This document shows, piece by piece, positions 27,601-64,000 of a stretch of DNA of 64,000 nt. Made by a program: the position numbers and the translations under genes. The stretch spans positions 8,879 through 72,878 of the forward strand of contig CAZNKB010000006.1 of the NCBI GenBank assembly GCA_964573695.1, written 5' to 3'. How positions within the stretch are numbered: the stretch's first letter is position 1; each line of letters begins with the position of its first letter. This DNA is from an uncultured Gammaproteobacteria bacterium (lineage in GTDB: Bacteria; Patescibacteriota; Microgenomatia; UBA10105; UBA927). Below the pieces are notes generated by a model. It was not told where the DNA came from, made no database searches, and saw only the letters and a list, made by a program, of their open reading frames with translations.

Positions 27601-27617
27601 GGGATTGGTTCTGTCAT
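21675..27617 (-). CDS. giant hypothetical protein (1980 aa) with a low-complexity Pro/Glu/Ala/Thr segment and internal glycine-zipper hydrophobic helices
   Basis: Single uninterrupted ORF. Residues ~100-190 are PAAPAIKQETPAQIPQEPAASGETPTSQDKPTESPALSPETPAPATPEQHAPEAPTPEAV. Mid-protein hydrophobic segments VAIALSAVNFLKTAPFKAVASITGPLGSLTGGALAGGLFAGW and VKYGVKAGVVGAAVGAAFQGLAHIG. No enzymatic motif recognised. Confidence 0.6.
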   Translation of the reverse strand: MTEPIPPQNNPEIGKQQSIIVGETPIYLSQPQLIGGKDISYITILPAEKRSNDGVGSIVPLVKELSRKKGEEGKLVDKPLTNLNAFDEVPWDKISGLQWSDEQNATHMITKDMLTLEPQAPAAPAIKQETPAQIPQEPAASGETPTSQDKPTESPALSPETPAPATPEQHAPEAPTPEAVQQEPTPAKGAREILETLTEDPNVITIVGLKAYETRALDLADRSMQKLTHPQSAERTQATRNLWEKTKDAVANIENFAVTTWKQSIGGIYFHEKARQYYIDMLKAAETPFAEDAIRLAERRATDKYNAKLADSNFILRIGTKAVDWFKDKVGMRTTIQNIALEEIGTMRLTGEIKGLETFEREAKAVRARFGGDFDQADQFVRKQLGEKLEILDPAREEHKPLVEGIQSLLKQYASGEIADKAEFDARTKEFFKATLNNTRPDIFAEAELYSSSLYEVAETLRTKMSHEGGLANIDEAINSMQIRLGLGAMGEVTSLEPTAVEKGVGQIREIADWLNKQHVLVPMVFNEATIGSGVAIALSAVNFLKTAPFKAVASITGPLGSLTGGALAGGLFAGWREYGQLQKDYMTHLRERESGAQFTETQKRRNWFEKFAVKQRRADEMIATLQSSLYEGDTLKANLSDDELRASFATIADLHARKAVSETGPKRIGLIQYTNRESIESERSALDLTANKALADIESYLAGHTEQADLVLGGNTFAEFMEKLTVTQTQVLRQGAQSLDALDDPLKLTLNLVSSYAPEAEIMRRRWPFASKNLSGDEKALGLDAILEEFKSEAKIEAVKYGVKAGVVGAAVGAAFQGLAHIGTSDTVTRGAAELSDAANATGSSHVELSPPTGEHIISIGHNVYQLPKEMIVNPYTENGKVFYDAKLDISLIENLKGQEDVVLGTHLSEQQFKDALVKAGLSITEPHKAGEAVSSIHDVVTIPHLTTPGGEPLTAKLPEDYTLKYLDSSHHWQILNADKQIVSTVDFTQTGELQGTPAELAKLTADLKANGFEWKSQEIIPAKIESFPATSVFVSGTPESANAGDMIDIKGSDLQEGGLWDYFLDKSSGEHRVASANGIKNLFRLYEQHYVPHTADGIPQNVSFGDNGSNPYDHVARLRDATFGDTPVKEFDIAHIANDAHINVPKELFSPEAVHRFSEMNDLAIKHYQDIVASGQSPMDALHLLEKGSDQDKIDALLLRMSYFGRDADLPSQAELAPLMEKLGLPESPESPFVGTPIVPTPITEVKTDAIHQFTLTEVFKSDEPGKIFASAPLEIPYHVETVVTPGAAARELPWIPIFLPYREVLEAAPIEGLMGQMIPGETMISPFGYEETFLNREARANRMSPRLTENPQAKLNEREEIDWYLSLLTPEEQQTLEALKAQDNPVLSPDTRAIVSIPLVQNGNTIYQRLSTYAQQTNADGSALDPKRVAFVVYEANVTPPAESVTSTLPGDTKAEIDRFRADHPDMQVQFITNTYAEPPTSGRIKRDLSNYALSLVASRPPDAPEVSLIAENSTGNPVEATYLSSIIDTFDANPSLDIVSGIYQLPKDAYANYPMLFAHHRAFEIFDALVRHGETQSVPAAFQGNTAVRSGSLAAIGGYNPNSPLMEEREVAWMLTDARKTPDVAVSLPSLAATMDPKETVYMQLQQLGLAEPSVPLANNEVYKDMHWEDMAKKANEQFTKETMEAHINNMYANMYPTLKSSNPARFDAYFGRTMDTLGLTYELKDGAITITDMTNLSANMAATPDIESFAKTAAQEVVAAVPNAPESPREHLETLAGDQPEKPTEAETPTETVASSIASPDVTNAQPTEPPAIQTETPRAPERLPEGVEDRITYVLNKARETQAAVQLTTGELMDYVRSSVELPGARITGGKITIEGNTVKLTDMKAKTIVGEAQFAGTLITDPTHGLIVKKDTLSLHLPLLARPWQKSIHESLDHFNDLVLTHLNGKINPSWKANRIDVAGDKLQVSFAKKKAV

Positions 27618-47736: not shown

Positions 47737-48948
47737 ATGAGAATTCTATATCTTCAAACGTTTCCGTTTTGGGGAAGCGGCTCAGGCACATACGCACGAC
47801 ATTTGGCGAGCGAAGTGGGTCGTCGTCATAAAGTCGCCATTCTTGCTCCCGACACACGTCCCATTGAGCGAGCTAAGTTGTATTCTGTGGCACTTCCATT
47901 CCCGGTAGCCTTTACCGGGCATCCTGAGTGGCCCGATTGCAAGCTTTATACACAACTTAATAATGACGAAATATACCGGGTTTACAAGGTGCTGCTTGAG
48001 TCTGCGATAGCAGCAGTAGTCGATTTCCGGCCCGATATCATTCATGTTCACCACGCCTTCCCGTTTTCTTGGGCTGCGGCGTTTATCAAGGATTTTTATA
48101 ACATTCCGTACGTAGTGACGATTCATGGATCCGAACTGCCGTCCATGGAAAAAGAGAAACGGTTTATTAGGGCTACATATTATGCGATGTATCGTGCTAA
48201 ACAGATATTTCCGAATTCCGGATATACGAGAGACTGGTTTTTGAGAATTTTCAAGGGAGATTTTCATGAAAAAAGCCGAGTAATCCCCGGGGGTGTGAAC
48301 GTCGACAAATTCATCTATAGCGAGTCGGGCGCGAAATCCGTCGATAAGGAACTCAAGCTACATGGTAAGCCGGTCGTGGTATTTGCCGGAAAACTCACAA
48401 AATACAAAGGAGTAGAGTTCCTCGTCGGGGCGGCAAAAAATATCCATGGGGAAGTCGTCATATTGGGGGACGGTCCGGAAAAACAGCGCTTACAGGAAAA
48501 AGCGAGACAACTGAATTTAACAAATATTCATTGGGTGGGTCATTTGGGTGCAGGGATCAAAAAGCTCGTACCGTATTATTCCCGGGCGGACGTATTTGTA
48601 GCTCCCAGCGTGTGGGACGAGCCGTTGGGGCTCGTCATATTGGAAGCTATGGCATGTCAGACACCAGTTGTGGTTACCAGAAAAGGCGGAATTCCGCTTG
48701 CCGTCAAAGAAGGATATAACGGGCTGTTTGTCCGTGCGCGAAATAGTGCTGAGATCGTCGAGAAGGTCAATAAACTATTAGATAACGCGTCTTTTCGGTA
48801 TAAAATGGGCCAGAACGCACGTAAATCGGTAGAAGAAAAATTCTCCTGGGAAACGATTGCGCATAAATTCGAACTTTCGTATGCCAAATATGCCAAAAAA
48901 TCCAACGGATCGGCGTTTTCCGTGCAAGCACCGGCGGCAAAGAGCTGA
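47737..48948 (+). CDS. GT4 family glycosyltransferase
   Basis: 403 aa. MRILYLQTFPFWGSGSGTYARHL. C-terminal GHLGAGIKKLVPYYSRADVFVAPSVWDEPLGLVILEAMACQTPVVVTRKGG (E-x7-E). Confidence 0.8.
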   Translation: MRILYLQTFPFWGSGSGTYARHLASEVGRRHKVAILAPDTRPIERAKLYSVALPFPVAFTGHPEWPDCKLYTQLNNDEIYRVYKVLLESAIAAVVDFRPDIIHVHHAFPFSWAAAFIKDFYNIPYVVTIHGSELPSMEKEKRFIRATYYAMYRAKQIFPNSGYTRDWFLRIFKGDFHEKSRVIPGGVNVDKFIYSESGAKSVDKELKLHGKPVVVFAGKLTKYKGVEFLVGAAKNIHGEVVILGDGPEKQRLQEKARQLNLTNIHWVGHLGAGIKKLVPYYSRADVFVAPSVWDEPLGLVILEAMACQTPVVVTRKGGIPLAVKEGYNGLFVRARNSAEIVEKVNKLLDNASFRYKMGQNARKSVEEKFSWETIAHKFELSYAKYAKKSNGSAFSVQAPAAKS

Positions 48949-49013
48949 CGTAATATATCGTACATCCAAATACCACACAGACCGTTACAATAAGATTTCT
49001 CTATTATATTACT

Positions 49014-49247
49014 ATGCGTAAAACAACAACCGAAGTTACCGGGTATACCATGTATTATTCTGAGCCAGGTGAACTCGACAAGATTATGGCCCAGGGTCAC
49101 GAGTATGATATTTGTAAAATTGGCTGGACCGGTCCCAACACCGGGGCAAGGCGTGTCGCATTTACATCCGATGAATCAGGAAATCGGAGATTCGAGCGTA
49201 AAATGCGCGCACTCAAATTTGAAATTCAGGACGTATCCGCAGTCTGA
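49014..49247 (+). CDS. hypothetical small protein
   Basis: 77 aa ORF between GT4 genes. Confidence 0.3.
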   Translation: MRKTTTEVTGYTMYYSEPGELDKIMAQGHEYDICKIGWTGPNTGARRVAFTSDESGNRRFERKMRALKFEIQDVSAV

Positions 49248-49294
49248 TTTGTCTTTCAGGTGACTTCTTTTTCCGTTTGACATACACTGGTTGT

Positions 49295-50365
49295 ATGAGA
49301 ATCCTCATATTAGGTTCCGTTGCATTGCCTGTTCCTCCTCCCATGCAGGGAGGTACTGAGCGTATAGCCTATTGGCAGGCTTTGGGGCTTGCCAAGCGCG
49401 GACACCAAGTGACGCTTATCGCAGCGAAGGGATCGAAAAAGGATCCGTCCTACACGCTGGTTGAAATTGGCGGCGGCGATACGGTAACAGGGTCTTCGAC
49501 TCAGTCCACAGTTAACTTTACAGAAGGCTCGCGAGCCATGCGCAAGGAATTGGTGTACATGGCAAACGTTTCCCAGTGGATGTTGGATCACGGGAAAGAA
49601 TTTGATGTAATCCTCAATAACATGCGCGGCGGCGAATCCATGCTGCTTCCTATCGCCAAAAAATTAGGCGTGCAGTTTGCAACCGTGATGCATTTGCCGA
49701 TATTTGCGGAATTAGCCGATGAATTCCGTATATATAACACGCCCGTTATCACTATTAGCAATGCTCAGAAAGAAGGTTTTGACGGACTCAATTACATTGG
49801 CACTGTTTATAACGCTACCGATGTAGAAGAGTTACCATTCCAGGAAAAAGCCGGAGAGTATCTCCTCATGATGGGCAGTATCGCGCCGCATAAAAATCAA
49901 AAAGACGGAATTCTTGCTGCAAAAGCGGTGGGTCAAAAAATTATTCTGGCCGGTAAAATCGGGAATCAAACCTATTGGGAGAGTGAGGTGGCTCCGCTTG
50001 TGGACGGAACAACGGTGATACACAAAGGCGAAATGGGGATAGCGGAAAAGGCAGCTTTACTGGGTAACGCCCAAGCCTTGTTATTCCCGATTGTCTGGCC
50101 GGAACCGTTCGGACTCGTCATGATAGAGGCATTGGCGACGGGCACACCTGTGGTCGCGTACGGTAACGGCGCTGTTTCGGAGGTTGTTACGGACGGAAAA
50201 ACGGGCTTTATCGTCGATCAGTCACAAGGTGTTGGGGGGCTGGCCGTCGCTACCAAACGAGTTGGAGAAATCAATCGGGCCGATTGTCGTGCCGATGTGG
50301 AGAAGAGATTCACGATAGAAAAAATGATAGAAAGCCTCGAAGTAGCACTCCGGACCGTTGCGTAG
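49295..50365 (+). CDS. GT4 family glycosyltransferase (paralog 1 of 3)
   Basis: Start set to ATG 49295 (MRILILGSVALPVPPPMQGGTERI), which matches the paralog N-termini. The track start at 49277 is a TTG. C-terminal FPIVWPEPFGLVMIEALATGTPVVAYGNGAVSEVV. Confidence 0.8.
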   Translation: MRILILGSVALPVPPPMQGGTERIAYWQALGLAKRGHQVTLIAAKGSKKDPSYTLVEIGGGDTVTGSSTQSTVNFTEGSRAMRKELVYMANVSQWMLDHGKEFDVILNNMRGGESMLLPIAKKLGVQFATVMHLPIFAELADEFRIYNTPVITISNAQKEGFDGLNYIGTVYNATDVEELPFQEKAGEYLLMMGSIAPHKNQKDGILAAKAVGQKIILAGKIGNQTYWESEVAPLVDGTTVIHKGEMGIAEKAALLGNAQALLFPIVWPEPFGLVMIEALATGTPVVAYGNGAVSEVVTDGKTGFIVDQSQGVGGLAVATKRVGEINRADCRADVEKRFTIEKMIESLEVALRTVA

Positions 50366-50441
50366 GTGATTTTTGGTTTTCCTTGTTTGTCCCCTTTGTG
50401 GTACGATCGGGGCTCCGTTTAGAAGTGGGTATACGTAAGCT

Positions 50442-50660
50442 ATGCACGAACGAAAGCGTCTTCATTTGCTGACTGGCCTCATGCGCAGAGTGGAAGAGTT
50501 TGAGGAAGAAGCTGTGGACATTGAGGTATTTCTTGGTGGAGAGTGGAAAGCCCGGGTTATGGTGCTGCCGCGTTGGCAGATAGAGATTATGCAGCGACGC
50601 GGCGTATATCACATGACTGATGATGATAAAGAAGAAATTCAGGTCCGGTTAGCCTCGTAG
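50442..50660 (+). CDS. hypothetical small protein
   Basis: 72 aa ORF. Confidence 0.3.
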   Translation: MHERKRLHLLTGLMRRVEEFEEEAVDIEVFLGGEWKARVMVLPRWQIEIMQRRGVYHMTDDDKEEIQVRLAS

Positions 50661-50711
50661 TTAAGGTAAGCGCATTCATCAGTATCCAAATCTACATGGT
50701 ATGATGAATAT

Positions 50712-51752
50712 ATGAAGATTGCAGTTCTTGCCCCTCCGTATTTACCAGTGCCTCCGCCACTTTACGGCGGAACAGAAAAAATAGTCTCGCTTTTGACGGA
50801 AGGATTAGTCGACCAGGGCCATGATGTGACGTTGTTTGCAAGCGGAGATAGTGTCACCCACGCGAAGCTATCGAGTATGTTTCCCACCGCATTAGGTAAC
50901 AGCGGGCTTACCAAAGGAAATACGGATAAGCCATTGGCGCATTACCACGCGTGTTATGCTAGAGCTGACGAATTCGATGTCATTCACAGCCACGGCCAGT
51001 ATCTGAGTTTGCCGGAAGCTTCAACGATCAAAACACCTGTTGTATTTACTTGGCATGGATCATTTTATCCGGGAGAAACAACGGAGGAAAAGCGGGAGAT
51101 ACTCAAAAAATACAAACATCTTAATTATATTTCCATTTCCAACAATCAACGTGCTGGTTTAGCTGATCTTCATTATGTAGCGACGGTATATAACGCACTG
51201 GATATAGCGGAGTATCCGTTTATTCCTGCCCCGGGCGATTATCTCCTCTGGATCGGTAGGGTGAATCCCAAAAAAGGTGCTCTGGATGCCATACAGGCCG
51301 CGAAACGGCTGGGTATACGGCTGGAAATGGCCGCTGCTATCGATCCCATTGATCACCAGTATTTTGAAGAAACGATTAAACCACATATTGACGGCGAACG
51401 TGTCGTATTCCACGGAGAGATAGGACATAGTGCTCTCGTCGAATTATATGGAGGAGCGCTTGCCACGCTATATCCTATTTCCTGGCATGAACCGTTTGGA
51501 CTCGTTATGGCCGAGAGCATGTCGTGCGGGACTCCTGTGATTGCCTATAACGTGGGGTCGGTACCGGAAATAGTACGAGATAGATTGACAGGATTTGTTA
51601 TAGATCCGTCTTTGGGAGTTGAGGGACTTGTAGATGCGGTCAAAAAGCTAGATACCATAGATCGATCTCGCTGCAGGAAACACACCGAGGCATATTTTCA
51701 TAAAGACAGAATGGTCAGAGATTATGAAGCGGTCTATGAGGCGCTGCTATGA
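50712..51752 (+). CDS. GT4 family glycosyltransferase (paralog 2)
   Basis: 346 aa. MKIAVLAPPYLPVPPPLYGGTEKI. YPISWHEPFGLVMAESMSCGTPVIAYNVGSVPEIV. Confidence 0.8.
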   Translation: MKIAVLAPPYLPVPPPLYGGTEKIVSLLTEGLVDQGHDVTLFASGDSVTHAKLSSMFPTALGNSGLTKGNTDKPLAHYHACYARADEFDVIHSHGQYLSLPEASTIKTPVVFTWHGSFYPGETTEEKREILKKYKHLNYISISNNQRAGLADLHYVATVYNALDIAEYPFIPAPGDYLLWIGRVNPKKGALDAIQAAKRLGIRLEMAAAIDPIDHQYFEETIKPHIDGERVVFHGEIGHSALVELYGGALATLYPISWHEPFGLVMAESMSCGTPVIAYNVGSVPEIVRDRLTGFVIDPSLGVEGLVDAVKKLDTIDRSRCRKHTEAYFHKDRMVRDYEAVYEALL

Positions 51753-52867
51753 GAATCGGACTGTATATTTCACCTTCGCACCGAGTTCCTCCTGACGAAA
51801 AAAGCATCCTGGCTCCTTGGGTGTTGGTCCAACAACTGGCAGACGGCTTGGTCGCAAAGCATCACGATGTGACACTTTTTGCTGCCAAGGGAAGTAACAC
51901 ATCCGCCAAACTTATACACGGAGGGATAGACGCAACGATAAATCGGATTTCGGAGTATGGAGATCATGATGACTACCGGGCGTATGTCATTGCCCAGGAG
52001 CTTGCACTTATGCGCGAGGTCATCGTTTGGGCAAAAGAAGGAAAGCTTGATGTGGTGCATATACACCAACCGGTCGAGCGACTGTATCCTGCTCTTCTGG
52101 CTATGCCGGCTAAGGTGCCTGTTGTCATAACGTTTCATGATCCCATTAATCCCGAGAGGTTTGCAGCCCTCGAAAAGCTTATGGAATTGGGGAATATTCA
52201 TCTGGTTTCACTCTCCAAAGCCCAACAGCATCAGGTGCCATTCCCATTTGCCGGCGTTGTGCCAAACGGCGTAGATACGTCTCGATTTGTGCCCGACGGA
52301 CAGTTGCCGCTTCGTAAGCGCCCGCTACTTATCACCGGACGCATCGTGCCTCAAAAAGGATTCACGGATGCGATAGAAGCTGCTCGCGCCGTTCACATGC
52401 GCCTGATGATTGTCGGGCAGGAATACGAGCAACAGAAAGTGTCCCGCGAATATTTTGAGGGAGAGGTGAAGCCGGCAATAGACGGCAAAAACGTACTTTG
52501 GGAATCCGTCGTAAAACAGGAGCATCTTGTGGGGCATTATCAGACAGCAGCAGCGCTTCTTTTCCCCATACGCTGGGAGGAGCCATTCGGACTGGTTATG
52601 ATAGAGGCTATGGCAACCGGTACGCCCGTGATTGCCTATAATCGGGGATCCGTGCCGGAGATTATCATTGACGGCAAAACCGGGTTTATCGTTGACCCGA
52701 AAGAAGGAGTAAAGGGATTGGTCCAAGCCATTAAACGGATCGATGAGATTGATCGAATGGCCTGCCGTCGTCATGTCGAGCGTTATTTTTCTCTTGCCAC
52801 GATGATCGCGGGTTACGAAGCCGTGTACAAAAAAGTCAGTCGTACGGCAAAACTTCCTGTCAAGTAG
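51749..52867 (+). CDS. GT4 family glycosyltransferase (paralog 3)
   Basis: 372 aa. ATGA overlap with the upstream gene. FPIRWEEPFGLVMIEAMATGTPVIAYNRGSVPEII. Confidence 0.8.
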   Translation: MRIGLYISPSHRVPPDEKSILAPWVLVQQLADGLVAKHHDVTLFAAKGSNTSAKLIHGGIDATINRISEYGDHDDYRAYVIAQELALMREVIVWAKEGKLDVVHIHQPVERLYPALLAMPAKVPVVITFHDPINPERFAALEKLMELGNIHLVSLSKAQQHQVPFPFAGVVPNGVDTSRFVPDGQLPLRKRPLLITGRIVPQKGFTDAIEAARAVHMRLMIVGQEYEQQKVSREYFEGEVKPAIDGKNVLWESVVKQEHLVGHYQTAAALLFPIRWEEPFGLVMIEAMATGTPVIAYNRGSVPEIIIDGKTGFIVDPKEGVKGLVQAIKRIDEIDRMACRRHVERYFSLATMIAGYEAVYKKVSRTAKLPVK

Positions 52868-52907
52868 AGTACATACACGCTTCTATTCTCCGTGCTAAGA
52901 TAAATTC

Positions 52908-54338
52908 ATGCGGGTTTTATTTGTCACCAGTGAGATAGCCACGCTTTATAAGCGGGGGGGGTTGGCTGATGTAAGTTACGCATTGCCGGTATCTCTTTCC
53001 CAATTAGGGGTAAATGTCTCTGTTGCCATGCCATATTATGCCAGCGTAACGACGAAAGGTGTGACCTGTGTCGGGCAATTGGCGATTGATTATGATAGGC
53101 GGCGCGAATTGGTATTTGTGTTTCGGACGCTGCTACCACATTCTCATGTGCGTGCATATCTGTTCCGGCATCCGCTGCTTAATGACTATGATGATGCGCA
53201 CATTGCCGATCGGTTTGCCTTTTTTTCCAAGGCAGTAGCCCAGCTCTCGTTGTATTCGGAAGGTGTACTTGGGGGCCCGTATGACATTATTCACTGCAAC
53301 GACTGGCATACGGCATTGATCCCGATGCTTATCGGAGAGCAGAGTAAGGTAGGATATCGGGAACGGGAAACGATACAATCCCGAAGAGTCAAAACGATCC
53401 TCACCGTGCACAATCTGCTGTATCAGGGGGAGACGGGATTTTCGATTACGCTCAAGCTCGGGTTTCCTAAAACGATATTTCATCCCTTTATGACGCCGCT
53501 TGGTCGGGCAGTGCGACTACTCACCGAAGGATTTGAGTATGCCGATAAAGTGACAACCGTTTCCCCGACGTATGCCAAAGAAATAGCCCGCGGGGTCCAC
53601 GGCAAGCGCGTCGTCGAGGTGTTTAAACGCAGAAAAGACCGAATGATAGGGATACTCAATGGTCTTGATACCAAATTGTGGGATCCAAAAACGGATCCGT
53701 CGCTCCCTGTGCATTATGAAACAAGCTCAGTGGTGCAAGCCAAGCGCGCGATAAAAGAGCAACTACAGAAAGCCCTCCGTCTTCCTGTTTCCCCCGTGCC
53801 TTTGTTCGGATTTGTCGGCCGGTTAGAAAAACGTCAAAAAGGACTTGATCTTATTGCCCGAGTCATTGCAAAGCTTAAGGGAGAAGACTACCAGTTGGTG
53901 CTTTTGGGCACCGGGCAAAAAAAGCTTGTGACTCTGTTTGAAAAGCTTGCCAGTGAGAATGAACATATAGCTTTTGTCCATACGTTTGATGAACGGCTCG
54001 CGCGGCGGATCTATGCCGGAAGCGATGTTATGCTGGTTCCCTCGAAGTTTGAGCCGTGTGGCCTGACACAAATGATTGCCATGCGCTATGGAACATTGCC
54101 CTTGGTGCGTAACACCGGTGGGCTAGCTGATACGGTCAGCGACGGGGAGACCGGTTTCGTATTCGGACCATATACCAGCACCGCACTTGCTGCCAAGATG
54201 AAAGAAGCTATCTTACTTTATCGGGATAATCCGACCAAATTCACTCGAATGATGAAGCACGTTATGCGGGTGGATTTTTCCTGGGCCCACCAGGTTAAGG
54301 AATATATGCGGCTTTATCAGAAGCTTATTTCTTCCTAG
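52908..54338 (+). CDS. glgA: glycogen/starch synthase (GT5)
   Basis: 476 aa. MRVLFVTSEIATLYKRGGLADVSYALP (KxGGL), CNDWHTALIP, GILNGLDTKLWDP, LVPSKFEPCGLTQMIAMRYGTLPLVRNTGGLADTV. Confidence 0.85.
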   Translation: MRVLFVTSEIATLYKRGGLADVSYALPVSLSQLGVNVSVAMPYYASVTTKGVTCVGQLAIDYDRRRELVFVFRTLLPHSHVRAYLFRHPLLNDYDDAHIADRFAFFSKAVAQLSLYSEGVLGGPYDIIHCNDWHTALIPMLIGEQSKVGYRERETIQSRRVKTILTVHNLLYQGETGFSITLKLGFPKTIFHPFMTPLGRAVRLLTEGFEYADKVTTVSPTYAKEIARGVHGKRVVEVFKRRKDRMIGILNGLDTKLWDPKTDPSLPVHYETSSVVQAKRAIKEQLQKALRLPVSPVPLFGFVGRLEKRQKGLDLIARVIAKLKGEDYQLVLLGTGQKKLVTLFEKLASENEHIAFVHTFDERLARRIYAGSDVMLVPSKFEPCGLTQMIAMRYGTLPLVRNTGGLADTVSDGETGFVFGPYTSTALAAKMKEAILLYRDNPTKFTRMMKHVMRVDFSWAHQVKEYMRLYQKLISS

Positions 54339-54457
54339 CCGCTCGGCCTTGTGTAGGACAAAGAGATACTTTGTGGATTTTTACCAATATCTCCCAAAGT
54401 TTTTACAAGTATTTACAAGTAGTTACCAGTTTTATATAGGGCGTACTGACGCGACGT

Positions 54458-55456
54458 TTATGCTAATGTGTAATACACGCTCCGCCCCCTGCCGCTCGAG
54501 AGAAGGAATCCGAAGGAAACGAGTTTCGTAAGGTCGCGACTTGCGGTAATTTGTGAGATTCGGAATCGTTTTTGGACCTCGCGATTCGTGACTTTTGCTG
54601 ACGGTACATCAAGCAGCATAAGGATATGTTTTTGGCGCTCATTGAGTGACGCAAACGACTGTGTGTGCGTCGCTGTGCGGCCGGCTCGTTCCCGTATATC
54701 CTGAAGCAGGGTCATATATGCCTCGTGTGTTGCCCGGACAAAATATTCTAGCCAAACGGTCATCTGGCCAAGTGAACCAATACTTGTAAGCGCATGGGTA
54801 TAGGCATTGGGATCCCGGGTAAGGGCATATTCCAGATTGAGCATCCCTCGGCAGTCATACCCGTATTTGGCCATGATAAGGCTGCTTGTGAGGAGCGCCA
54901 TGCGCCGGTGCGACTGTTTCTGAATATCAGTATGTGCCGTCGCTGCGTGTGCTACGCCTGCGATAAGAAGCGGATGATCACCGGATTGCGTCTCTATATA
55001 TGCCACGAGTCGCTTAAGGTCGATAGCACTTTCGCGAATTGAGCGGGATATGCGGGAAAACGGAAGCGAAAGCGCGACGCTCATGAGTATTTCCAGGCTA
55101 GCAAGGGTGACAGGTTTGGAGCTCCCGGTCCATTCGTTGCGGATATACGTTAAAGCCTGGCGGTAAAGAAGGGCTTCCTGTTCCATGGGGTGGGGTCTTT
55201 TGGGCGTATTGGATAGCAATCTGTTGAGCTCGACGATCGTCATGGGGATATCGGCTAGCCGAAGGGCAGTCAGGATTCTTCCGGTCGTTGCCAGGTAGCG
55301 AAGTTCAATTTCTCTCCGGGGGGATAAAGGCCAAGAAAGGAGATGGCTGCGATACAGGTCTATATCTTTCGTTTGATTTTGAAGAAACGGCGAAAACGTG
55401 TATGCAATTGGTATTCCCATACAGCTCAAGGAGTAGTTACATTTGGATCGTATCAC
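54458..55456 (-). CDS. Fic-domain-like protein with a degenerate active-site motif and a C-terminal winged HTH
   Basis: 332 aa. GDHPLLIAGVAHAATAH...HRRMALLTSSLIMAKYGY sits where HPFx[DE]GNGR...RLL...GY is expected. C-terminal REVQKRFRISQITASRDLTKLVSFGFL. Assignment is tentative. Confidence 0.4.
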   Translation of the reverse strand: MIRSKCNYSLSCMGIPIAYTFSPFLQNQTKDIDLYRSHLLSWPLSPRREIELRYLATTGRILTALRLADIPMTIVELNRLLSNTPKRPHPMEQEALLYRQALTYIRNEWTGSSKPVTLASLEILMSVALSLPFSRISRSIRESAIDLKRLVAYIETQSGDHPLLIAGVAHAATAHTDIQKQSHRRMALLTSSLIMAKYGYDCRGMLNLEYALTRDPNAYTHALTSIGSLGQMTVWLEYFVRATHEAYMTLLQDIRERAGRTATHTQSFASLNERQKHILMLLDVPSAKVTNREVQKRFRISQITASRDLTKLVSFGFLLSSGRGRSVYYTLA

Positions 55457-55704
55457 GAGGTCTAGAAAAAATCAAAGTATATCTAAGCTTGTTAGTACGG
55501 GAAATATGCGTTTATGTGATAAGAGAACGATAAGATTATGATCTGGTTAGTCCGGTGCTTGACAAGGTGTGAAAAGCAGGCGTACAGTAGATATATAACT
55601 TACACATATTAGTAATAACTGTGAAAGTTATTGGTAAGCACTTGTAAAAACTTGGTTTAATTTCGCATTGGTACGGGCTAAAGGGTTTGGGAGCCTGCCT
55701 GGAC

Positions 55705-57636
55705 ATGCCCAAAACATATACTGTCAAAGAAGTCGCTGATATACTCGGGTTTAGCACGAATAGCATCTACACGTTCCTAAAAGAGAAGCGGATAAAAGGC
55801 GTGCGCGTCGGCAAAGGCCGGTTCCGTATCCCCGAAGAGGAATTAGCACGCATACTCCATATCAGTAAGAAGTCAGCCGCTACAACACCCGCCCCCGTGG
55901 AAGCCCCAGAAGGTGTATCTGCCCCAGTACTCAAGCCCGAAGGCGATGCTGCATTTATTACGTCTCAGAGCTCCTATGAGTCGGGGAAGGCAAATGATGT
56001 CCTTGTACCCAATATTTTTGATTGGTTTGTCGGCTTGGCGTCTCTGATTGCCGGAGTGGGATTATTTTTGTTTAATTCCTCGACCAATTCGCTTGAGGTT
56101 ACACGAACTACTTTGGTTTTTCCTGTTATTCGCGTGGTACTGATCGCCTGCGGATTTGGCGTCATACTAAGCAGTATTTTTGCACAAGGAAGGAATTGGC
56201 ATAGGGTTTTCCTCTATGCGCTTTCCATGCTGGGGTTTGTAAATGCATTCGGACTTGCCCGAAACGGGGATATGGAGGGAGCGTTTTTGTATGGCGGGTT
56301 AGCACTTATCATCGGCGTGACGAATGTCGTTCCCTTTGGGGGAATTGTCTCGATCGGATTGTATGTGACGCTTGTGGCGTTGTTGTATCCGGTGACTATA
56401 GTGTTTTTTCCTAGTGACACACACGTTCAGTTACTCTCTGGGGCACTTCACTTGTCGGCCCCGCTTATGGTCGTGGGGTCATTGATTGTCGGCATTGTGT
56501 TGCCGATTCTTTTTTGGGTGGGATATGCGAGCAATCGCAGGCTTTTCATCGCGACGACTGCTTTGTTGGGACTTGCGGATATGGTTGTCGCTGTTTGGTA
56601 TGCGCACCTGCAACTATGGAGCAGATCGTTTTTTATCATCGTACTCGGATACTTCACAGTGTTCTTACCGCATTGGTGGCCTTTGCAGCAAAAAATTGCA
56701 AGGCGCTACAAGCTTGTGCTGCACGGGTTGTTTTTGGTGATCGGAAGCATATTGGTCATAGCCGTGCTTGTTGTGTATTTGTTGCAGCAAAACCTTTGGA
56801 ACTCGCGGGAAAGTGAATTCGCGAATAAAATAAAAGTAGCGCAGTTGTCGCTAAACAGGGCGGTTGAGTCCGTGCAGGGTTCGCTCACTGTTGCGGCACA
56901 AAATCGTGAATTTACCGATACGTTGGTGAAGAAGGATCTGGAAAAACTGACCGTGTTTGCCAAAATTGTGTATGAGAGTAACCCCAATATCCGCCGGCTC
57001 GTATTTTTGGACAAAGAGGGTGATGGCGTCGCGCTTTATCCATACGGAACATTTGACCAGCCGAATTTATCTTACCGCGATTATTTTACCCAGGCCAAAT
57101 CAACAGGTCGCCCGTATGTCTCAAACGTATTTCAGTCCCAGGCAGATCATGCCGGTCGGTATGTGGTGGTTGTGGCAGTGCCGTTTCAGGATGCCAAGGG
57201 AGATTTTGCCGGAGTCATAACCGGCTCGATTGATTTGCGTCGCGTGGGACTCCAGCTCGCACAGATAGCCGCTGATACTCGCGGAGAGTATTTTGTCGTG
57301 ACCGATGCGAAAGGGGTTATTCTCATTCACCCGGATGAAAAACTTATCGGGACGGACGTCTCTTCCGGTGATCCGATGCTGCGGGGGTTATCGGGGGCTC
57401 CCGGGGTAAACCACGGAATTACTATTGACGCTTCTTACGGTATGGTCGCCTATGCTGATGTGCCGATACTTCGGTGGGTTATAAGCCTGCGGGTGCCGGC
57501 GGAAAACGTATTTGAACTCACCTATGTGAGCATCTGGTATGTCTATGGAACGGTGGTCGTTCTTCTGCTTATTGGTATCTATATTTTTTCCTACGCCAGA
57601 CTAAGAATGGGACAATCGAAAGAAGGCGGGACCTGA
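55705..57636 (+). CDS. Membrane one-component regulator: N-terminal excisionase/MerR-type HTH, polytopic membrane domain, periplasmic Cache-like sensor domain, C-terminal TM
   Basis: ATG at 55705 is preceded by a GGGAG SD; the track start at 55687 is a [53 protein letters not shown]. ~8 TM helices. A ~260 aa extracytoplasmic domain with Cache-like features ([20 protein letters not shown]...VVVVAVPF). Terminal TM. Its stop overlaps the next start (TGATGA). Confidence 0.65.
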
Positions 57637-58403
57637 TGAACAAAACTTCCATAAGACCAGAGAAACAACAGAAATCCGCAGTCAGCGGATTTCTCGCTGT
57701 AAAGGGTTTTGGGCCATTCGGCCGATTGTCATTAATCGGCGGCTTTTCGCCGATCATGCCGTTTCTTTTTGCTGTCGTTATCGGAGGATTGGGATTTGTG
57801 TTATTTGAAGCGTTTCGTTTGAGTAGTACGGGTTTGGTAAAAAAGAGTCAGGATCAGATAGCATCACCAATCATTAACCGCTTGACGGAGAAGGTGATTT
57901 CGGAAAGCACATGGATACGTCCGTTTATCGTATTGGTCCAGCGAGCCGATGGATCGTTTGCGTATGCCTATGTAGAAAACGCCGTAGTAAAAAATGATGC
58001 GTTTGTCGGAGATGTGACCATTCGCTATACCAATGGTGAGCGCGGGATCGTGCATGACGAGAACGGATACTTCCGGTTTTTCCTGACAAAGCAGGGTAGC
58101 CAGGAATCGGTGAGAATTCTGGTGCCGATCATTACGGGTATCAGATTGCCCGACGATACAATCATCCTGGCGCAATTTTCTGACGGTACAATTATAGACG
58201 AACAGTTTGTGGGGCCGTTTTCGGCCCTCACTGTGCTTGAGAAATTGCAAATTACGGGAACCCGCTCGGCTCAGGGCGGATACATCACCATAACAGTTAA
58301 CCCGACGCTCAAGTCTGTTGATACAGGTGTGGCGCTCATAGAGCGTGAGATTTTGAAAATGGCCCTTTCTGCAATGGGTCACACAGACAGCGTGTTGGGG
58401 GTA
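57636..58403 (+). CDS. membrane-anchored hypothetical protein (N-terminal TM, ~200 aa extracytoplasmic domain)
   Basis: 255 aa ORF, verified codon by codon in frame 0 ([60 protein letters not shown]...). Not in the supplied track. Ends at TAA 58401-58403, in the same frame as the collagen-like ORF. Confidence 0.5.
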
Positions 58404-58472
58404 ACGACAGATACGCCGGGGATCGATAAACCTCTTAACTTGCCGATATTATCATCGAGCATTGGTACGAAT

Positions 58473-61400
58473 ATGCTGATCCAACGGTTTGAAGGAGAAG
58501 GAGTGGTTCGTATTGTTCCACAAAGTAACAATATAGATCAATCTATAACAAACATACAAAATCTGAATCCTTCGTTTGATACCACGACAATCAACCAGTC
58601 ATCACAGCTTGCGTCCAATCAGGGATTTTATCCTTCTTTATATAGTGGGGGCGCAGGAACAACCGGTGTGACCGGAGCGACAGGCGCTACTGGCATACAG
58701 GGAGCAAAAGGGGATTCCGGAGCAAAAGGAGCACAAGGATCCAATGGAGTCGACGGACCAACGGGAGCGACGGGAACTGGTGAGTTGGGGCCGATTGGTC
58801 CGACAGGAGCAACAGGGTCAGGCGGTGGAGGTGGTGGCGGAGGTGGCGCAGACGGACCAACGGGAGCAACAGGGGCGACCGGAGGAATTGGTGCAAGCGG
58901 ACCAACAGGGTCTACAGGAGCAACTGGTGCCAATGGCCCCACAGGATCGACCGGAGTCACCGGAACACAAGGTGCTTCCGGCCCGACCGGTTCAACTGGT
59001 GCCACAGGTGGAGTCGGGGCCTCCGGTCCAACGGGTTCGACAGGAGCGACTGGCAGTGTAGGAACAACTGGTCCTACTGGTTCGACAGGAGCGACGGGAT
59101 CACAGGGTGCATCAGGTCCCACTGGTTCCACAGGTTCCACAGGTGGAGTTGGTGCATCAGGTCCAACGGGAAGTACGGGATCCACTGGCTTGCTTGGCGC
59201 ATCAGGCCCGACTGGTTCTACTGGAGTACAAGGCTCTTCCGGTCCCACTGGATCAACCGGTGCGACCGGTTCGCAAGGTGCTTCCGGTCCGACAGGGTCT
59301 ACAGGAGCAACGGGTGGAGTTGGTGCAAGCGGCCCGACGGGAAGTACTGGGGCAACAGGAGGCGTTGGATCGAGTGGTCCGACTGGTGCTACCGGATCAA
59401 CGGGAGCAACTGGTTTACAGGGATCTTCAGGTCCCACCGGATCTACAGGTACAACAGGTCAAGGTGGTCCGACTGGTGCCACAGGTCCTACCGGCTCTCA
59501 AGGGGGAGCCGAAGGCGCACCAGGTCCTACTGGCTCAACCGGAGCAACTGGGAGTGTAGGTGCATCAGGCCCGACGGGTAGCACCGGTGCCACTGGAGGA
59601 ATTGGAGCCAGCGGCCCGACAGGATCTACAGGTGCAACCGGAACGCTGGGAGCAAGTGGACCAACGGGAAGTACGGGATCCACTGGCTCACAAGGAGCAA
59701 GTGGTCCTACCGGCCCAACAGGAAGCACAGGATCTACGGGAGGCGATGGTGCCTCGGGCCCAACCGGTACAACCGGATCTACCGGTACTCAAGGAACAAG
59801 CGGTCCGACGGGTTCAACAGGTGCAACAGGTTCTCAAGGTGCATCAGGTCCTACCGGAGCAACTGGCGCCACGGGTACCAATGGCCCAACAGGATCAACA
59901 GGCGCTACTGGTGGAGTTGGCGCAAGTGGACCTACAGGCGCAACAGGAGCAACTGGAACACAAGGAAATCCAGGAATTGACGGAGCAAATGGTCCTACAG
60001 GTTCTACAGGAGCAACTGGTGCAAATGGAGCAAATGGTCCTACAGGTTCTACAGGAGCAACTGGTGCAAATGGAGCAAGCGGACCGACAGGTTCAACAGG
60101 TGCGACTGGAACTCAAGGGGCAAGCGGTCCAACGGGTTCAACTGGCACCACTGGAACCAATGGTCCAACGGGTTCGACAGGAGCAACAGGAGGCGTTGGT
60201 GCATCAGGCCCGACGGGAAGTACTGGGGCAACAGGAGTGCAAGGAGCTTCGGGTCCGACAGGAAGTACCGGAGCTACAGGTGGAGTCGGAGCCAGTGGCC
60301 CGACAGGATCTACCGGCGCAACTGGTTCACAGGGGTCTTCCGGCCCAACCGGAAGTACCGGAGCTACAGGTGGAGTCGGAGCCAGTGGCCCGACAGGATC
60401 AACGGGAGCTACAGGTTCAGTAGGGCAACAAGGTGCTTCAGGTCCGACTGGTTCTACTGGATCCACAGGAACAAATGGAGCATCCGGTCCGACCGGATCA
60501 ACGGGAGCAACCGGCGTAAATGGAGCGAGCGGACCCACTGGTTCAACGGGAGCTACTGGGTCTCAAGGATCTTCTGGTCCAACAGGATCAACAGGAGCTA
60601 CTGGTGGAGTTGGAGCCAGTGGCCCGACCGGATCAACCGGATCAACAGGTACTCAAGGGGGTGTTGGCGCATCAGGTCCAACGGGAAGTACAGGGGTAAC
60701 GGGAAGTAACGGTCCAACTGGTTCTACGGGAGCGACCGGAAATGCAGGAGAAAATGGTCCGACAGGTAGTACGGGAGCAACTGGTGGCATCGGTGCATCA
60801 GGCCCAACTGGCTCAACCGGCGCGACTGGAATACAAGGAGCTAGTGGCCCAACTGGAAGTACGGGTGCTACAGGATTTCAAGGAGCGAGTGGGCCTACCG
60901 GATCTACTGGCGCTACAGGTGAAGTTGGTACGTCAGGCCCGACTGGTTCAACTGGCTCTACCGGCGCAAATGGACCTACTGGTTCTACTGGGGCAACAGG
61001 TTCCCAGGGAGTAAGTGGGCCTACGGGCTCCACTGGTTCTACCGGAGGAGTTGGTGCTTCTGGTCCGACTGGTTCTACTGGTGCTACGGGAACGCAAGGT
61101 GCCTCCGGACCCACAGGAAGCACCGGGGCTACCGGAAATGCAGGAGAAAATGGTCCGACCGGGAGTACGGGAGGAACTGGAGCGGTTGGCGCCAGTGGTC
61201 CCACAGGCTCTACCGGGGCTACTGGTTCTGTTGGAGCGAGTGGTCCAACAGGAAGTACCGGATCCACTGGGGTTCAGGGAGCATCCGGTCCTACCGGTTC
61301 CACTGGGGCAACGGGAATTCAGGGAGCGAGTGGTCCGACCGGGAGTACGGGAGCAACAGGAGTTAATGGTGCATCAGGACCAACCGGATCCACAGGAGCA

Positions 61401-64000
61401 ACTGGTGGAGTAGGAGTTACAGGTCCGACGGGAGCAACAGGCTCTACTGGTACGAATGGTCCAAGTGGATCAACAGGGGCTACGGGTGAAGTTGGAGCCA
61501 GTGGTCCAACCGGATCTACTGGCGCTACTGGTATTCAAGGTGCATCAGGACCAACCGGATCTACAGGAGCTACCGGAACACAAGGCGCTTCAGGTCCTAC
61601 GGGAAGTACGGGAGCAACAGGTGGCAATGGTGCATCAGGACCAACCGGATCTACAGGAGCAACGGGTGGCAATGGTGCCTCCGGTCCTACGGGATCAACT
61701 GGGTCAACAGGATCTGCGGGAGTTCAGGGAGCATCTGGTCCCACAGGAAGTACGGGTGCCACCGGTACTGCTGGAGCGACTGGCCCTACCGGTTCCACTG
61801 GGGCAACGGGAGTTCAGGGAGCGAGTGGTCCTACTGGATCTACTGGTGCGACTGGAACACAGGGAGCAAGTGGACCAACCGGAAGTACCGGAGCAACTGG
61901 TGGAATTGGAGCGTCTGGTCCGACCGGATCTACGGGAGCTACCGGAAATGTAGGAGAAAGTGGTCCTACCGGTTCAACAGGTACCACGGGAATCAATGGT
62001 CCGACGGGTTCGACAGGATCTACAGGAAGTGTTGGCTCATCCGGTCCGACTGGATCTACTGGTGCGACAGGAACACAAGGAGCGAGTGGTCCCACCGGAT
62101 CAACAGGAGCTACCGGAACACAAGGTGCTTCAGGTCCTACGGGAAGTACGGGTGCAACTGGCGGTGCTGGAGAGAATGGTCCCACCGGATCAACAGGAGC
62201 TACCGGAACACAAGGTGCCTCCGGTCCCACAGGATCAACCGGGTCAACAGGTGCTCAAGGAAGCGTTGGTGCTTCAGGGCCAACTGGTTCAACAGGAGCC
62301 ACGGGAGTCCAAGGCGCCTCTGGGCCTACTGGCTCAACTGGATCTACCGGTGGTGTTGGTGCATCTGGTCCTACAGGATCTACCGGTGCAACTGGAGTTC
62401 AGGGAGCCTCCGGTCCCACCGGATCGACCGGAGCGACCGGAACGCAAGGAGCAAGTGGTCCAACTGGTGCAACAGGTGCGACTGGCACTCAAGGTGCCTC
62501 CGGTCCAACCGGATCCACAGGTGCTACCGGAGCGAATGGTCCCACCGGATCGACCGGAGCGACCGGAACGCAAGGTGCGTCTGGACCGACTGGTTCTACC
62601 GGTGCCACAGGAATGCAAGGAGCCTCCGGTCCCACAGGAAGTACGGGGGCGACTGGTATTCAAGGAGCGAGTGGTCCCACCGGATCTACTGGCGCTACTG
62701 GTATTCAAGGTGCATCAGGACCAACCGGTTCAACAGGTGCAACTGGTAGCAATGGTGCATCGGGTCCCACCGGATCTACTGGCGCTACTGGTATTCAAGG
62801 TGCATCAGGACCAACCGGGAGTACAGGAGCTACCGGAACACAAGGTGCTTCAGGTCCTACGGGATCGACTGGCGCAACTGGAACACAGGGAGCCTCTGGA
62901 CCTACGGGATCCACAGGAGCTACAGGAATTGCTGGAGTTACAGGTCCGACCGGGGCAACCGGAGCCACGGGAACGGCTGGAGCCAGTGGTCCGACCGGGG
63001 CAACCGGAACAACAGGCGTGCAAGGTCCAACGGGACCTGCAGGTCCAGGCGGAGAAACATTTATTTTGGACGGCGGGGCATACCTTTATCCGAATAATAC
63101 ATACGCGACTGACTTTAATTTTGATGACTTGGTCTTAGGGCTAGACGGAGAGGCAGGAGCGACCATAACTACCAATGATACGAACGAAACGCTTGATATC
63201 AATACCAATGGTACGGGAGCTATCACCATAGGCAGCGGTGCGAGTGCAAAATCGGTAACAATCGGCAACTCGACGACGACATCGAGCGTCGTATTGACAA
63301 AGGGAGCTTCAGGAAATATCACATTTACCGGGTTTGATTGCTCCGGCCTTACCAATGGTGGTGCGCTTACGGCTGACGCCAGCGGAAATATTTCCTGTAG
63401 CAATGACGATGGTGGTGGTGGCTCGACGACGCTGAAAGCTGCGTATGATGCGGATGTCGACGGATCCGACGCGGTGATCCTTATGACATCTACCGACGGA
63501 AGTATTATTTTCCAAACTGTTGCGGGGACGAATTTCCAGGTCGTTGCAACGGCGGCACCCACCGTAGATTTGCAGACAATCACCAATGCCGGTCAGGGAG
63601 TCACCAGTACCTCTGGAGTTGATGGACTATCGATCACCTATGTCCAGTCAACCGACGCCGGAACTATTACAGGGTCTGGGCTTGATATTACGGTGACGCC
63701 GTCTGGCGATGCGGCAGATACTATCCGTGCAATTACCATTAATAATGTGAGCGCAGGATCATCAACGGAAACAGGGCTTTACCTTGGCACCGGGTATGAT
63801 AAAGATATTCAATTTGCCGATCAAACACCGGTCATTCAAGTACCGGACGCGACGACCACGTTCGCTTCTCTCAATTTTCAGAATGCATCCGGCACGGTTC
63901 TGGCTTCGCTCAAGGAGTATTTTGCCGGGGAGAATTATGGTGCGATTGAGTCTGGAGGATTTATCAATATCGACGGAAGTTTCTATATGGATAACTTCAG
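58473..64000 (+). CDS. Giant collagen-like repeat protein (partial, continues beyond the window): short N-terminal region, ~1470 aa of uninterrupted Gly-X-Y triplets ([10 protein letters not shown] type), and a Thr/Asn/Gly-rich fiber-like C-terminal domain
   Basis: Frame 0 is open from 58404 to 64000, checked at multiple points. First ATG at 58473 ([23 protein letters not shown]...), with TTG 58440 as an alternative. GXY from ~58650 to 63053 with a ~15 aa (45 nt) period [15 protein letters not shown]. C-terminal [81 protein letters not shown]... Absent from the track because it has no in-window stop. Frame 1 and the minus frames are also open over the repeat but lack Gly periodicity. Confidence 0.7.
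58650..63053 (+). repeat. Coding tandem repeat array, ~45 nt periodicity (collagen-like G-X-Y)
   Basis: Reiterated variants of GGT CC(N) AC(N) GG(N) TC(N) AC(N) GG(N) GC(N) AC(N) GG(N) ... spanning ~4.4 kb. Confidence 0.8.

Follow-up and report, generated by a model that had tools for sequence, protein, structure and literature searches.

A membrane-bound HTH_17/dCache protein paired with a giant collagen-like fibre gene: a candidate one-component regulator in Microgenomates-group bacteria

Does the protein encoded next to the giant surface fibre of some ultrasmall bacteria control the gene of that fibre and, if so, through which DNA sites and in response to what kind of signal? In bacteria of the Candidate Phyla Radiation (CPR; Patescibacteria), genomes are tiny, few regulators are recognisable, and the control of host attachment is largely unknown. 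The question is raised here by a stretch of 64,000 nucleotides (assembly GCA_964573695.1, contig CAZNKB010000006.1, positions 8,879 to 72,878; hereafter the window), in which a gene at 55705..57636 on the plus strand encodes a 643-aa protein with the order HTH_17, nine transmembrane (TM) helices, dCache_1 and a tenth TM helix (TM10). We call this regulator candidate HC and its divergent Fic-like neighbour U315. The analysis favours, with some reserve, the view that HC regulates transcription as a transmembrane one-component system in bacteria of the Microgenomates group (CPR). As far as sequences can tell, it probably adjusts the production of the fibre to outside signals.

Architecture and topology of HC

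The start of HC is placed at the ATG at 55705, because the homologues all share an N-terminus beginning there (with the same residues or a close variant); an alternative in-frame TTG is available upstream, at 55687. The assignment of the open reading frame (ORF) and its domains draws on Pfam, on the homologues and on an AlphaFold2 model calculated with an input of 81 homologues (pLDDT 86.5, pTM 0.76). Pfam recognises HTH_17 (PF12728) at aa 5-51 (E = 9e-10; 39.1 bits for a cut-off of 27) and dCache_1 (PF02743) at aa 393-593 (E = 3e-18; 66.5 bits for a cut-off of 45), with a weaker match to dCache_3. Among NCBIfam models, only TIGR01764 ("excise") passes its cut-off (34.9 vs. 28.8 bits). The Pfam search of HC returns neither HisKA, HATPase_c or Response_reg nor any other output domain. 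The combination of an excisionase-type helix-turn-helix (HTH) with a polytopic membrane domain and a Cache domain, which a first-pass annotation had proposed from the letters of the window alone, is thus borne out by profile matches above cut-off and by the model.

The cytoplasmic head (aa 4-53; 55714..55863, plus strand) is a winged HTH of the excisionase/BldC type, as judged from HTH_17, TIGR01764 and its conservation. In the model, it folds into a compact β-α-α-β-β-α winged helix, with strands at 4-6, 33-36 and 39-43 and helices at 7-14, 18-26 and 44-53. The recognition helix is S17-T18-N19-S20-I21-Y22 and the basic wing extends from R34 to R41. The profile of the HTH family matches the Xis of phage Pukovnik (4J2N; E = 1e-5), which is the closest solved relative; sequence similarity between the HTH of HC and BldC is not detectable by HMMER. 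The head is followed by a variable Pro/Ala-rich linker (aa 56-100; 55870..56004, plus strand) that is predicted to be disordered (pLDDT <50 at aa 56-72; conservation 0.21).

The family-specific membrane domain (aa 101-362; 56005..56790, plus strand) contains nine TM helices, which span aa 104 to about 362 in the model, and the Kyte-Doolittle peaks concur. The ninth helix, TM9, runs unbroken into the stalk helix of the extracytoplasmic dCache domain (aa 363-600; 56791..57504, plus strand), which is supported by Pfam, Foldseek and the alignment. The stalk is followed by two α/β modules, at aa 401-509 and 529-598. The chain ends with TM10 (aa 607-640) and a basic cytoplasmic tail of 12 aa (57505..57633, plus strand), so that the Cache domain is flanked by TM9 and TM10; according to hydropathy, the model and Pfam, there is no output domain at the C-terminus. 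By our own count, the loops on the side of the HTH together with the tail contain about 11 Lys or Arg residues (163/167, 278/279, 330-336 and 633-640), against 3 in the short loops on the side of the Cache domain. Because the loops rich in Lys and Arg lie on the HTH side, the positive-inside rule places the HTH in the cytoplasm and the Cache domain outside, in agreement with the orientation assumed in the first-pass annotation.

In a Foldseek comparison of HC with the PDB, the top 50 matches are all dCache ligand-binding domains (Mlp37, Mlp24, PctA/B/C, KinD and mmHK1S among them), with target-normalised TM-scores of up to about 0.8. In the PctA-type dCache motif, an Arg, a Trp, a Tyr and an Asp bind the carboxyl and amino groups of the ligand. 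In HC, the conserved R458 aligns with R131 of KinD and with the equivalent Arg of PctC. The amino-acid-binding motif itself is not kept: the Trp is replaced by Y460, the Tyr by F461 and the Asp of "AGD" by S508. An anionic ligand for HC is plausible from these residues, which do not point to a canonical amino acid.

In a search of 5.8 billion proteins, HC has 185 matches. All of the 120 homologues listed carry both HTH_17 and dCache_1, and they are mostly 600-700 aa long. Their annotations read only "excisionase family DNA binding protein" or "helix-turn-helix domain-containing protein", and their sources are Patescibacteria and Candidatus Gottesmanbacteria. A scan with one genome per species gives 49 loci in Gottesman-, Roizman- and Collierbacteria and in other metagenome-assembled genomes (MAGs) of the Microgenomates group; the statistics below refer to 48 full-length non-redundant loci, and the counts on upstream regions to 49. 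Among 1.84 billion representative proteins, no other architecture contains the module of nine TM helices. The mean frequency of the top residue is 0.86 in the HTH, 0.21 in the linker, 0.46 in the TM domain and 0.53 in the Cache domain. The recognition helix STNSIY is invariant in 47/48 loci, down to 25% overall identity (the remaining row, L027, was read out of frame and is uninformative). Many MAG records with such a Microgenomates-type locus are titled "uncultured Gammaproteobacteria" or "uncultured Pseudomonadales" (L013-L015, L020, L021, L027 and others), titles that are probably placeholders or wrong taxonomy.

Promoter, repeat arrays and a second regulator

The conserved blocks upstream of HC stand out when regions of about 250 nt are aligned between relatives with proteins 48-59% identical. 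A candidate sigma-70-type promoter occurs at 55559..55588 (plus strand), with TTGACA, 18 nt and TACAGT (10/12 consensus matches). The TTGACA is kept at the same position upstream of HC in essentially all loci, and the -10 hexamer is TACAGT or CATAGT. Just downstream, at 55598..55659 (plus strand), about six 10-bp direct repeats with the consensus ACTTGTAAAA form a leader array, identified by weight matrix and conservation, which is a candidate operator for the HTH. It includes an exact copy of ACTTGTAAAAAC at 55640-55651, and the 8-mer ACTTGTAA is found in 36 of the 49 upstream regions. The repeat unit consists of a specific core, CTTGTAA, and an A-tract; the core itself is conserved, not the A-tract alone. 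With the weight matrix, spacings between repeats on the same strand are 10 nt (n = 99), 12 nt (n = 14), 22 nt (n = 26), 32 nt (n = 9) and 42 nt (n = 6), all in phase with the DNA helix. Across the loci, both this candidate operator and the recognition helix are invariant. A search for operator repeats, suggested by the first-pass annotation, has therefore a positive outcome: the arrays exist, they are strongly conserved, and their spacing is the one expected for this class of HTH.

A second array, again found with the weight matrix, lies at 54377..54430 with four repeat units in the opposite orientation (minus strand), between the 3' ends of U315 and of GT5, a glycogen-synthase-like glycosyltransferase gene. 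These two clusters are the only ones in the 64 kb of the window, against 0.17 expected from shuffled sequences, and the reversed array at the GT5/U315 junction has the same position and orientation in the closest relatives. Across the 48 loci, clusters are present upstream of the regulator in 38 (all on the plus strand), between the regulator and the fibre gene in 27 (all on the minus strand), between the convergent 3' ends of GT5 and the divergent gene in 13 (on either strand; an equivalent cluster occurs in L010, which is without the divergent gene), and upstream of GT5 in 5 (all on the plus strand). The arrays at the junction of GT5 and the Fic-like gene are those of L005, L016, L020, L029 and others, and arrays upstream of GT5 occur in L013, L014, L017 and L021. 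Every cluster called is intergenic relative to the genes mapped by tblastn, with the caveat that, in some lineages, the ORF of the fibre is open upstream through the reversed array, so that the repeats there may be coding. The additional arrays at gene ends and at GT5 may serve for looping, as a roadblock or as an antisense promoter. A role of the inverted arrays as an inverton or phase switch was also considered and was rejected, for there is no recombinase and no flipped locus; the five neighbourhoods of about 22 kb (the HC gene with 10 kb on each side) contain no integrase or recombinase.

The same promoter and array are found with two other membrane-tethered families that match HC in the HTH only, with the recognition helix STN(S/T)(I/V/L)Y. 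One family, of about 160 aa, has an HTH, a linker and two TM helices (L054:5842-6513, L056:5947-6462, L103 and L160). The other, of about 1000 aa, has an HTH, a TM helix, a large extracellular region and a multi-TM region (L069, from about 7062 down to 4050 on the minus strand, L087, L089, L147 and L155). In both, and in every case, the same repeat array precedes the start codon by 15-90 nt, and a TTGACA promoter precedes the array. Because the two families differ from HC in everything downstream of the HTH, the promoter, the array and the HTH appear as one conserved module. The operons of these additional families encode small membrane proteins and Tat-signal proteins.

Another short block, the pentamer CTGCC, is located 0-8 nt 5' of the ATG in 20/48 HC loci (55695-55707 in the window) and in the other HTH_17 families (L069, L089 and L103). 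It is not a Shine-Dalgarno sequence, and one other gene start of the window has it (10179, minus strand).

The divergent gene U315 (54458..55420, minus strand) encodes 320 aa with a degenerate Fic domain and a C-terminal winged HTH; its start at 55420 is fixed by homologues. In a profile comparison with the PDB, U315 matches FICD (E = 3e-12) and also a SoFic-type "Fic-domain transcriptional regulator", a type of protein with the same architecture, and HTH_DeoR is recognised in 18/21 members. The Fic catalytic motif (HPFxDGNGR; HxFx(D/E)GNGRxxR) is replaced by s-e-i-e-e-e-d-a-g, with no His and no GNG. Just 5' of the -35 hexamer of the HC promoter, at 55518..55535 (plus strand), a direct repeat GATAAGA-N4-GATAAGA, unique in the window, forms a candidate site for U315. 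In most loci, a second and inverted copy of this motif is present about 82 nt further upstream. The motif occurs in 34/34 loci with the divergent gene and in 0/11 without it (Fisher p = 1e-10, the loci not being phylogenetically independent). Because the GATAAGA motif vanishes with the divergent gene while the 10-bp arrays stay, we infer that the former belongs to U315 and the arrays to the HTH_17 protein, HC. U315 is likely a second regulator acting at the GATAAGA repeats.

The fibre gene and its junction with HC

Downstream of HC, a giant gene for a membrane-anchored collagen-like fibre starts at 57636 and runs off the window at 64000 (plus strand; more than 2121 codons), as established by translation, by the Pfam Collagen family (E = 9e-174) and by tblastn. 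The first-pass annotation had split this region into a membrane-anchor gene and a collagen-like gene; there is instead one continuous ORF. From the N-terminus, its product consists of a TM anchor, some 280 aa that form a domain, Gly-X-Y repeats over about 1500 aa and a C-terminal part that is not collagen. The anchor and the 280-aa domain occupy 57636-58640 (plus strand). The domain has no relative in Pfam or in the PDB-profile searches, and it is kept in all related loci, including those of Collierbacteria in which other repeats replace the collagen repeats. In a complete homologue (L001:11944-18864), the chain ends in an H-type lectin domain recognised by Pfam, with a weak match to an intramolecular-chaperone autoproteolysis domain. 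Because of these two matches, a trimeric adhesin tipped by a lectin fits the fibre. The Gly-X-Y repeats of the window (58640-63100, plus strand) are rich in Thr and Ser, and among the neighbours are five glycosyltransferase genes (47737-54338), an arrangement that resembles the glycosylated collagen-like BclA. A second very large ORF of the window is elsewhere, at 21675-27617 (minus strand; 1980 aa).

The gene order common to five long contigs starts with mreB, wecG, three or four GT4 genes and GT5; the divergent gene (about 315 aa) comes next, then the regulator and, on its 3' side, a giant ORF that measures 1500-3200 aa. By tblastn, a homologue of the fibre N-terminal domain lies directly 3' of HC in 45/48 loci; in L047, one of those that tblastn misses, a 1773-aa protein begins 3 nt past the regulator stop, with an N-terminus that is similar by eye. 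From these counts and the inspection of L047, the regulator and the fibre are paired in every full locus, over three candidate phyla. The linkage, for which the first-pass annotation had proposed a check of co-occurrence, persists down to 25% identity. More distant lineages are without the divergent gene and GT5, and because these two are lost there, the regulator and the fibre form the core unit. In one genome (MAG JAHFKK01), two such pairs occur on separate contigs (L018 and L019).

At the junction in the window, the TGA of HC (57634-57636) shares its A with the ATG of the fibre gene (57636-57638; ctgATGa, a 1-nt overlap), as had been noted before. The overlap holds for the window and its close relatives; in distant loci, automatic calls of an overlap are unreliable, as the reading frame there is open already 5' of the actual start of the fibre. 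A GC-rich hairpin, AGAAATCCGC-AGTCA-GCGGATTTCT, follows at 57670..57694, 33 nt past the HC stop and inside fibre codons 12-20. A perfect GC-rich hairpin is found 25-38 nt past the regulator stop in about 33/48 loci (with equivalents in L001-L051), compared with about 3% of shuffled sequences and 2% of coding controls. The stems vary by lineage and always pair (GAAATCCGC/GCGGATTTC, ATCCCGC/GCGGGAT, ATCCGCC/GGCGGAT, CCCCGCC/GGCGGGG and others), and a T-rich tail is present 3' of the hairpin in many loci. The hairpin of the window itself is scored as terminator-like on the minus strand only. In distant loci, the genes are separated by 60-170 nt, with the hairpin first, then the reversed array and then the fibre start. 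Because of the hairpin, the reversed array and this spacing, the fibre gene is probably attenuated at the junction or under a control of its own there. The translational coupling assumed in the first-pass annotation agrees with the overlap of stop and start in the window; with the conserved hairpin, simple coupling of HC and the fibre is at most a part of the story.

Regulator, anchor or neither

Taken as a regulator, HC would work as follows. Several HTH heads would bind the 10-bp repeats (ACTTGTAAAA)n head-to-tail, one per helical turn, probably polymerising on them as Xis and BldC do. The arrays in question begin right 3' of the promoter of the operon of the regulator itself and recur, usually inverted, near the fibre and glycosyltransferase genes. 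On binding its ligand (probably the base of the fibre itself or a compound of anionic or carboxylate type), the Cache domain would alter the packing or the clustering of the membrane domains, and this alteration would change the number of heads able to occupy an array; the nine-helix domain and TM10 would transmit or integrate the outside signal. The leader array lies just 3' of the promoter, over about +1 to +60, which makes autorepression or a roadblock the default prediction; the signal would relieve or strengthen it. The hairpin after the regulator would additionally limit read-through into the 6-10 kb of the fibre gene.

Several points weigh against this reading. All the organisms concerned are uncultivated; the loci are phylogenetically related; and every locus examined has the regulator, hence there is no negative set for the co-occurrence of array and regulator. 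A signal would have to cross nine helices and a disordered linker on its way from the Cache domain to the head, and the model does not account for the inverted orientation and the varying position of the second array. The unbiased metagenome scan for a two-unit array is noisy: 12 of the 120 matches listed are in HTH_17 systems, and most of the others among those listed are AT-rich and probably due to chance. Its one use is that it brings to light additional HTH_17 families that have this module. Several HTH_17 paralogues share the recognition helix and could bind the same arrays, so that a one-to-one assignment of the arrays to HC is uncertain. Lastly, the strict pairing with the fibre gene is equally well compatible with a partnership at the level of the proteins.

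Such a partnership would make of HC mainly a membrane platform for assembling or anchoring the fibre, with the Cache domain and the nine helices in contact with the N-terminal domain and TM anchor of the fibre and with an HTH that does no more than tether the locus to the membrane, so that the transcription, translation and insertion of a protein longer than 2000 aa are coupled (transertion), and is no switch that responds to a signal. The one-to-one adjacency in every full locus, tighter than for any other neighbour, would be natural in that case, and so would a conserved fibre domain without known homologue, a nine-helix domain confined to the HC family and arrays that flank genes and not the promoter alone. 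On the other hand, the same HTH-plus-array module accompanies other membrane proteins without any fibre gene, and the leader array is in the classical position of an operator. The Cache fold is also, to our knowledge, a small-molecule sensor in all characterised cases, and we regard a mainly structural role as unlikely. An equally low probability goes to the view that the HTH of HC binds elsewhere and that the arrays are bound by another factor (a soluble or membrane-tethered HTH_17 paralogue, or a nucleoid protein on phased A-tracts) or act as leader RNA. The recognition helix is indeed common to several HTH_17 families, and phased A-tracts bend DNA intrinsically, which would suit a nucleoid protein; yet the arrays track HTH_17 across three unrelated C-terminal architectures, and it is the CTTGTAA core that is conserved, not just the A-tract. 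At the RNA level, the leader arrays are transcribed and the reversed arrays would be complementary to them in a read-through transcript. Against a function as RNA, the folding of the leader is not significant (z = -0.86), an Rfam scan of 54300-55800 at E<=1 gives no match, and, relative to transcription, arrays of either orientation are found.

A very improbable explanation takes the HTH_17 head for a recombination directionality factor and the opposed arrays for recombination or inversion sites, the whole being a phase-variable switch, or the remnant of a mobile element, that controls the fibre. HTH_17 is the excisionase fold, the closest solved relative of the head is a phage Xis, and inverted arrays bracket the regulator gene or the promoter region. 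But the Pfam lists of the conserved neighbourhoods hold no integrase or invertase, the synteny mreB-wecG-GT4-GT5 is stable across phylum-level lineages, the 48/48 loci have the same orientation without a flipped variant, and in HC a membrane sensor is attached to the HTH.

The view of HC as a one-component regulator can also be extended, in a form that we consider rather doubtful. In the Microgenomates, there may be a whole class of winged-helix regulators, embedded in the membrane and forming filaments, that share one type of operator, (ACTTGTAAAA)n. In the case of HC, sensing by the Cache domain, perhaps of the fibre base or of a host-derived anion, would set the number of heads on the bracketing arrays, draw the fibre locus to the membrane, and gate both transcription and read-through at the hairpin. 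If true, the sensing of host or environment would be linked directly to the deployment of a glycosylated collagen-like adhesin. Short of this extension, the locus already offers a concrete and testable hypothesis on the way in which ultrasmall bacteria that depend on a host might control a major adhesin of their surface. It comprises a sensor-regulator conserved in three or more candidate phyla, a defined candidate operator and a second regulator that has a site of its own. The target is clear, namely the giant collagen-like fibre, tipped by a lectin, and the genes for its glycosylation.

Among known systems, transmembrane transcription regulators (TTRs), a widespread class, are defined by a DNA-binding domain and at least one TM region in one protein (PMC10269533). 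With HTH_17 and ten TM helices in one polypeptide, HC belongs to this class, and it is a one-component system in that input and output are in one chain with no phosphotransfer domain found. With the TTRs of the ToxR/CadC/TcpP type (PMC10269533), HC shares an N-terminal cytoplasmic DNA-binding domain, a flexible linker, a membrane span, an extracytoplasmic sensor and the lack of a phosphorelay. It differs from them by an HTH_17 in place of the OmpR-type winged HTH (the Pfam search of HC gives no match to Trans_reg_C, the OmpR/PhoB-type family), by ten TM helices and not one, and by a dCache sensor that is closed by an additional helix, TM10. The candidate operators are 10-bp tandem repeats downstream of the promoter, whereas the sites of ToxR and CadC are upstream activator sites. 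The best reading is, then, that HC is ToxR-like in logic and not a member of the ToxR family. The comparison with ToxR made in the first-pass annotation stands for the single-chain membrane regulator, but not for the type of HTH or the number of TM helices, and the downstream repeats suggest autorepression and not an activation of the ToxR style.

The fusion of a DNA-binding domain with an extracellular sensor, held to be unusual at first, is not new in itself, because 936 of the 50,302 transmembrane regulators catalogued in the supplement of the survey carry dCache_1 (PMC10269533); HTH_17 is found there in 151. In dCache_1 examples from excerpts of the supplement, the order is dCache_1-HTH_18, as in BH0483 (PMC10269533). 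Such AraC-type regulators also combine an extracellular dCache domain and a DNA-binding domain in one membrane protein, but with the Cache domain first and the AraC HTH at the C-terminus, and with one or two TM helices; in HC, HTH_17 is N-terminal and nine helices precede the Cache domain. The dCache chemoreceptors and kinases (PctA/B/C, Mlp24/37 and KinD) share with HC the fold, the position between two TM helices and the Arg equivalent to R131 of KinD. In HC, however, a DNA-binding domain at the other end of the chain serves as output, and the canonical amino-acid-binding residues are replaced. BcrR of Enterococcus is a membrane-bound one-component regulator with an N-terminal HTH and several TM helices. 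ArnR and ArnR1 of Sulfolobus (PMC6396743) are likewise membrane-bound one-component proteins with an N-terminal HTH, and regulators of the ArnR type control surface-appendage genes. These proteins and BcrR are unlike HC in that their DNA-binding and sensor domains are unrelated, they have neither a Cache domain nor repeat arrays, and they belong to other phyla. In text searches of the literature, we found no description of the order HTH_17, nine TM helices, dCache and TM helix with an N-terminal HTH, nor of a restriction to the Microgenomates, an obligate pairing with a giant fibre, or a shared operator module of repeat arrays.

For the head, there is a precedent in other HTH_17 proteins. BldC, the Xis of Pukovnik and of lambda, RdfS and Apl form head-to-tail filaments on direct repeats that are spaced by one helix turn (PMC5859096, PMC11963761, PMC7498355). 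BldC occupies 9-bp direct repeats head-to-tail, with its wing in the AT-rich minor groove, in filaments of one protomer per DNA turn (PMC5859096, PMC11963761). The HC head has the same small winged-HTH fold, and the arrays match the form of the sites of these proteins. They are, however, free proteins of 55-90 aa, whereas the head of HC is permanently tethered to a polytopic membrane sensor. Membrane tethering of a polymerising head would make the occupancy of the operator depend on the clustering of the receptor; we know of no description of this for regulators of the ToxR type. HC would thereby widen the transmembrane regulators to an excisionase-type HTH that normally polymerises on DNA.

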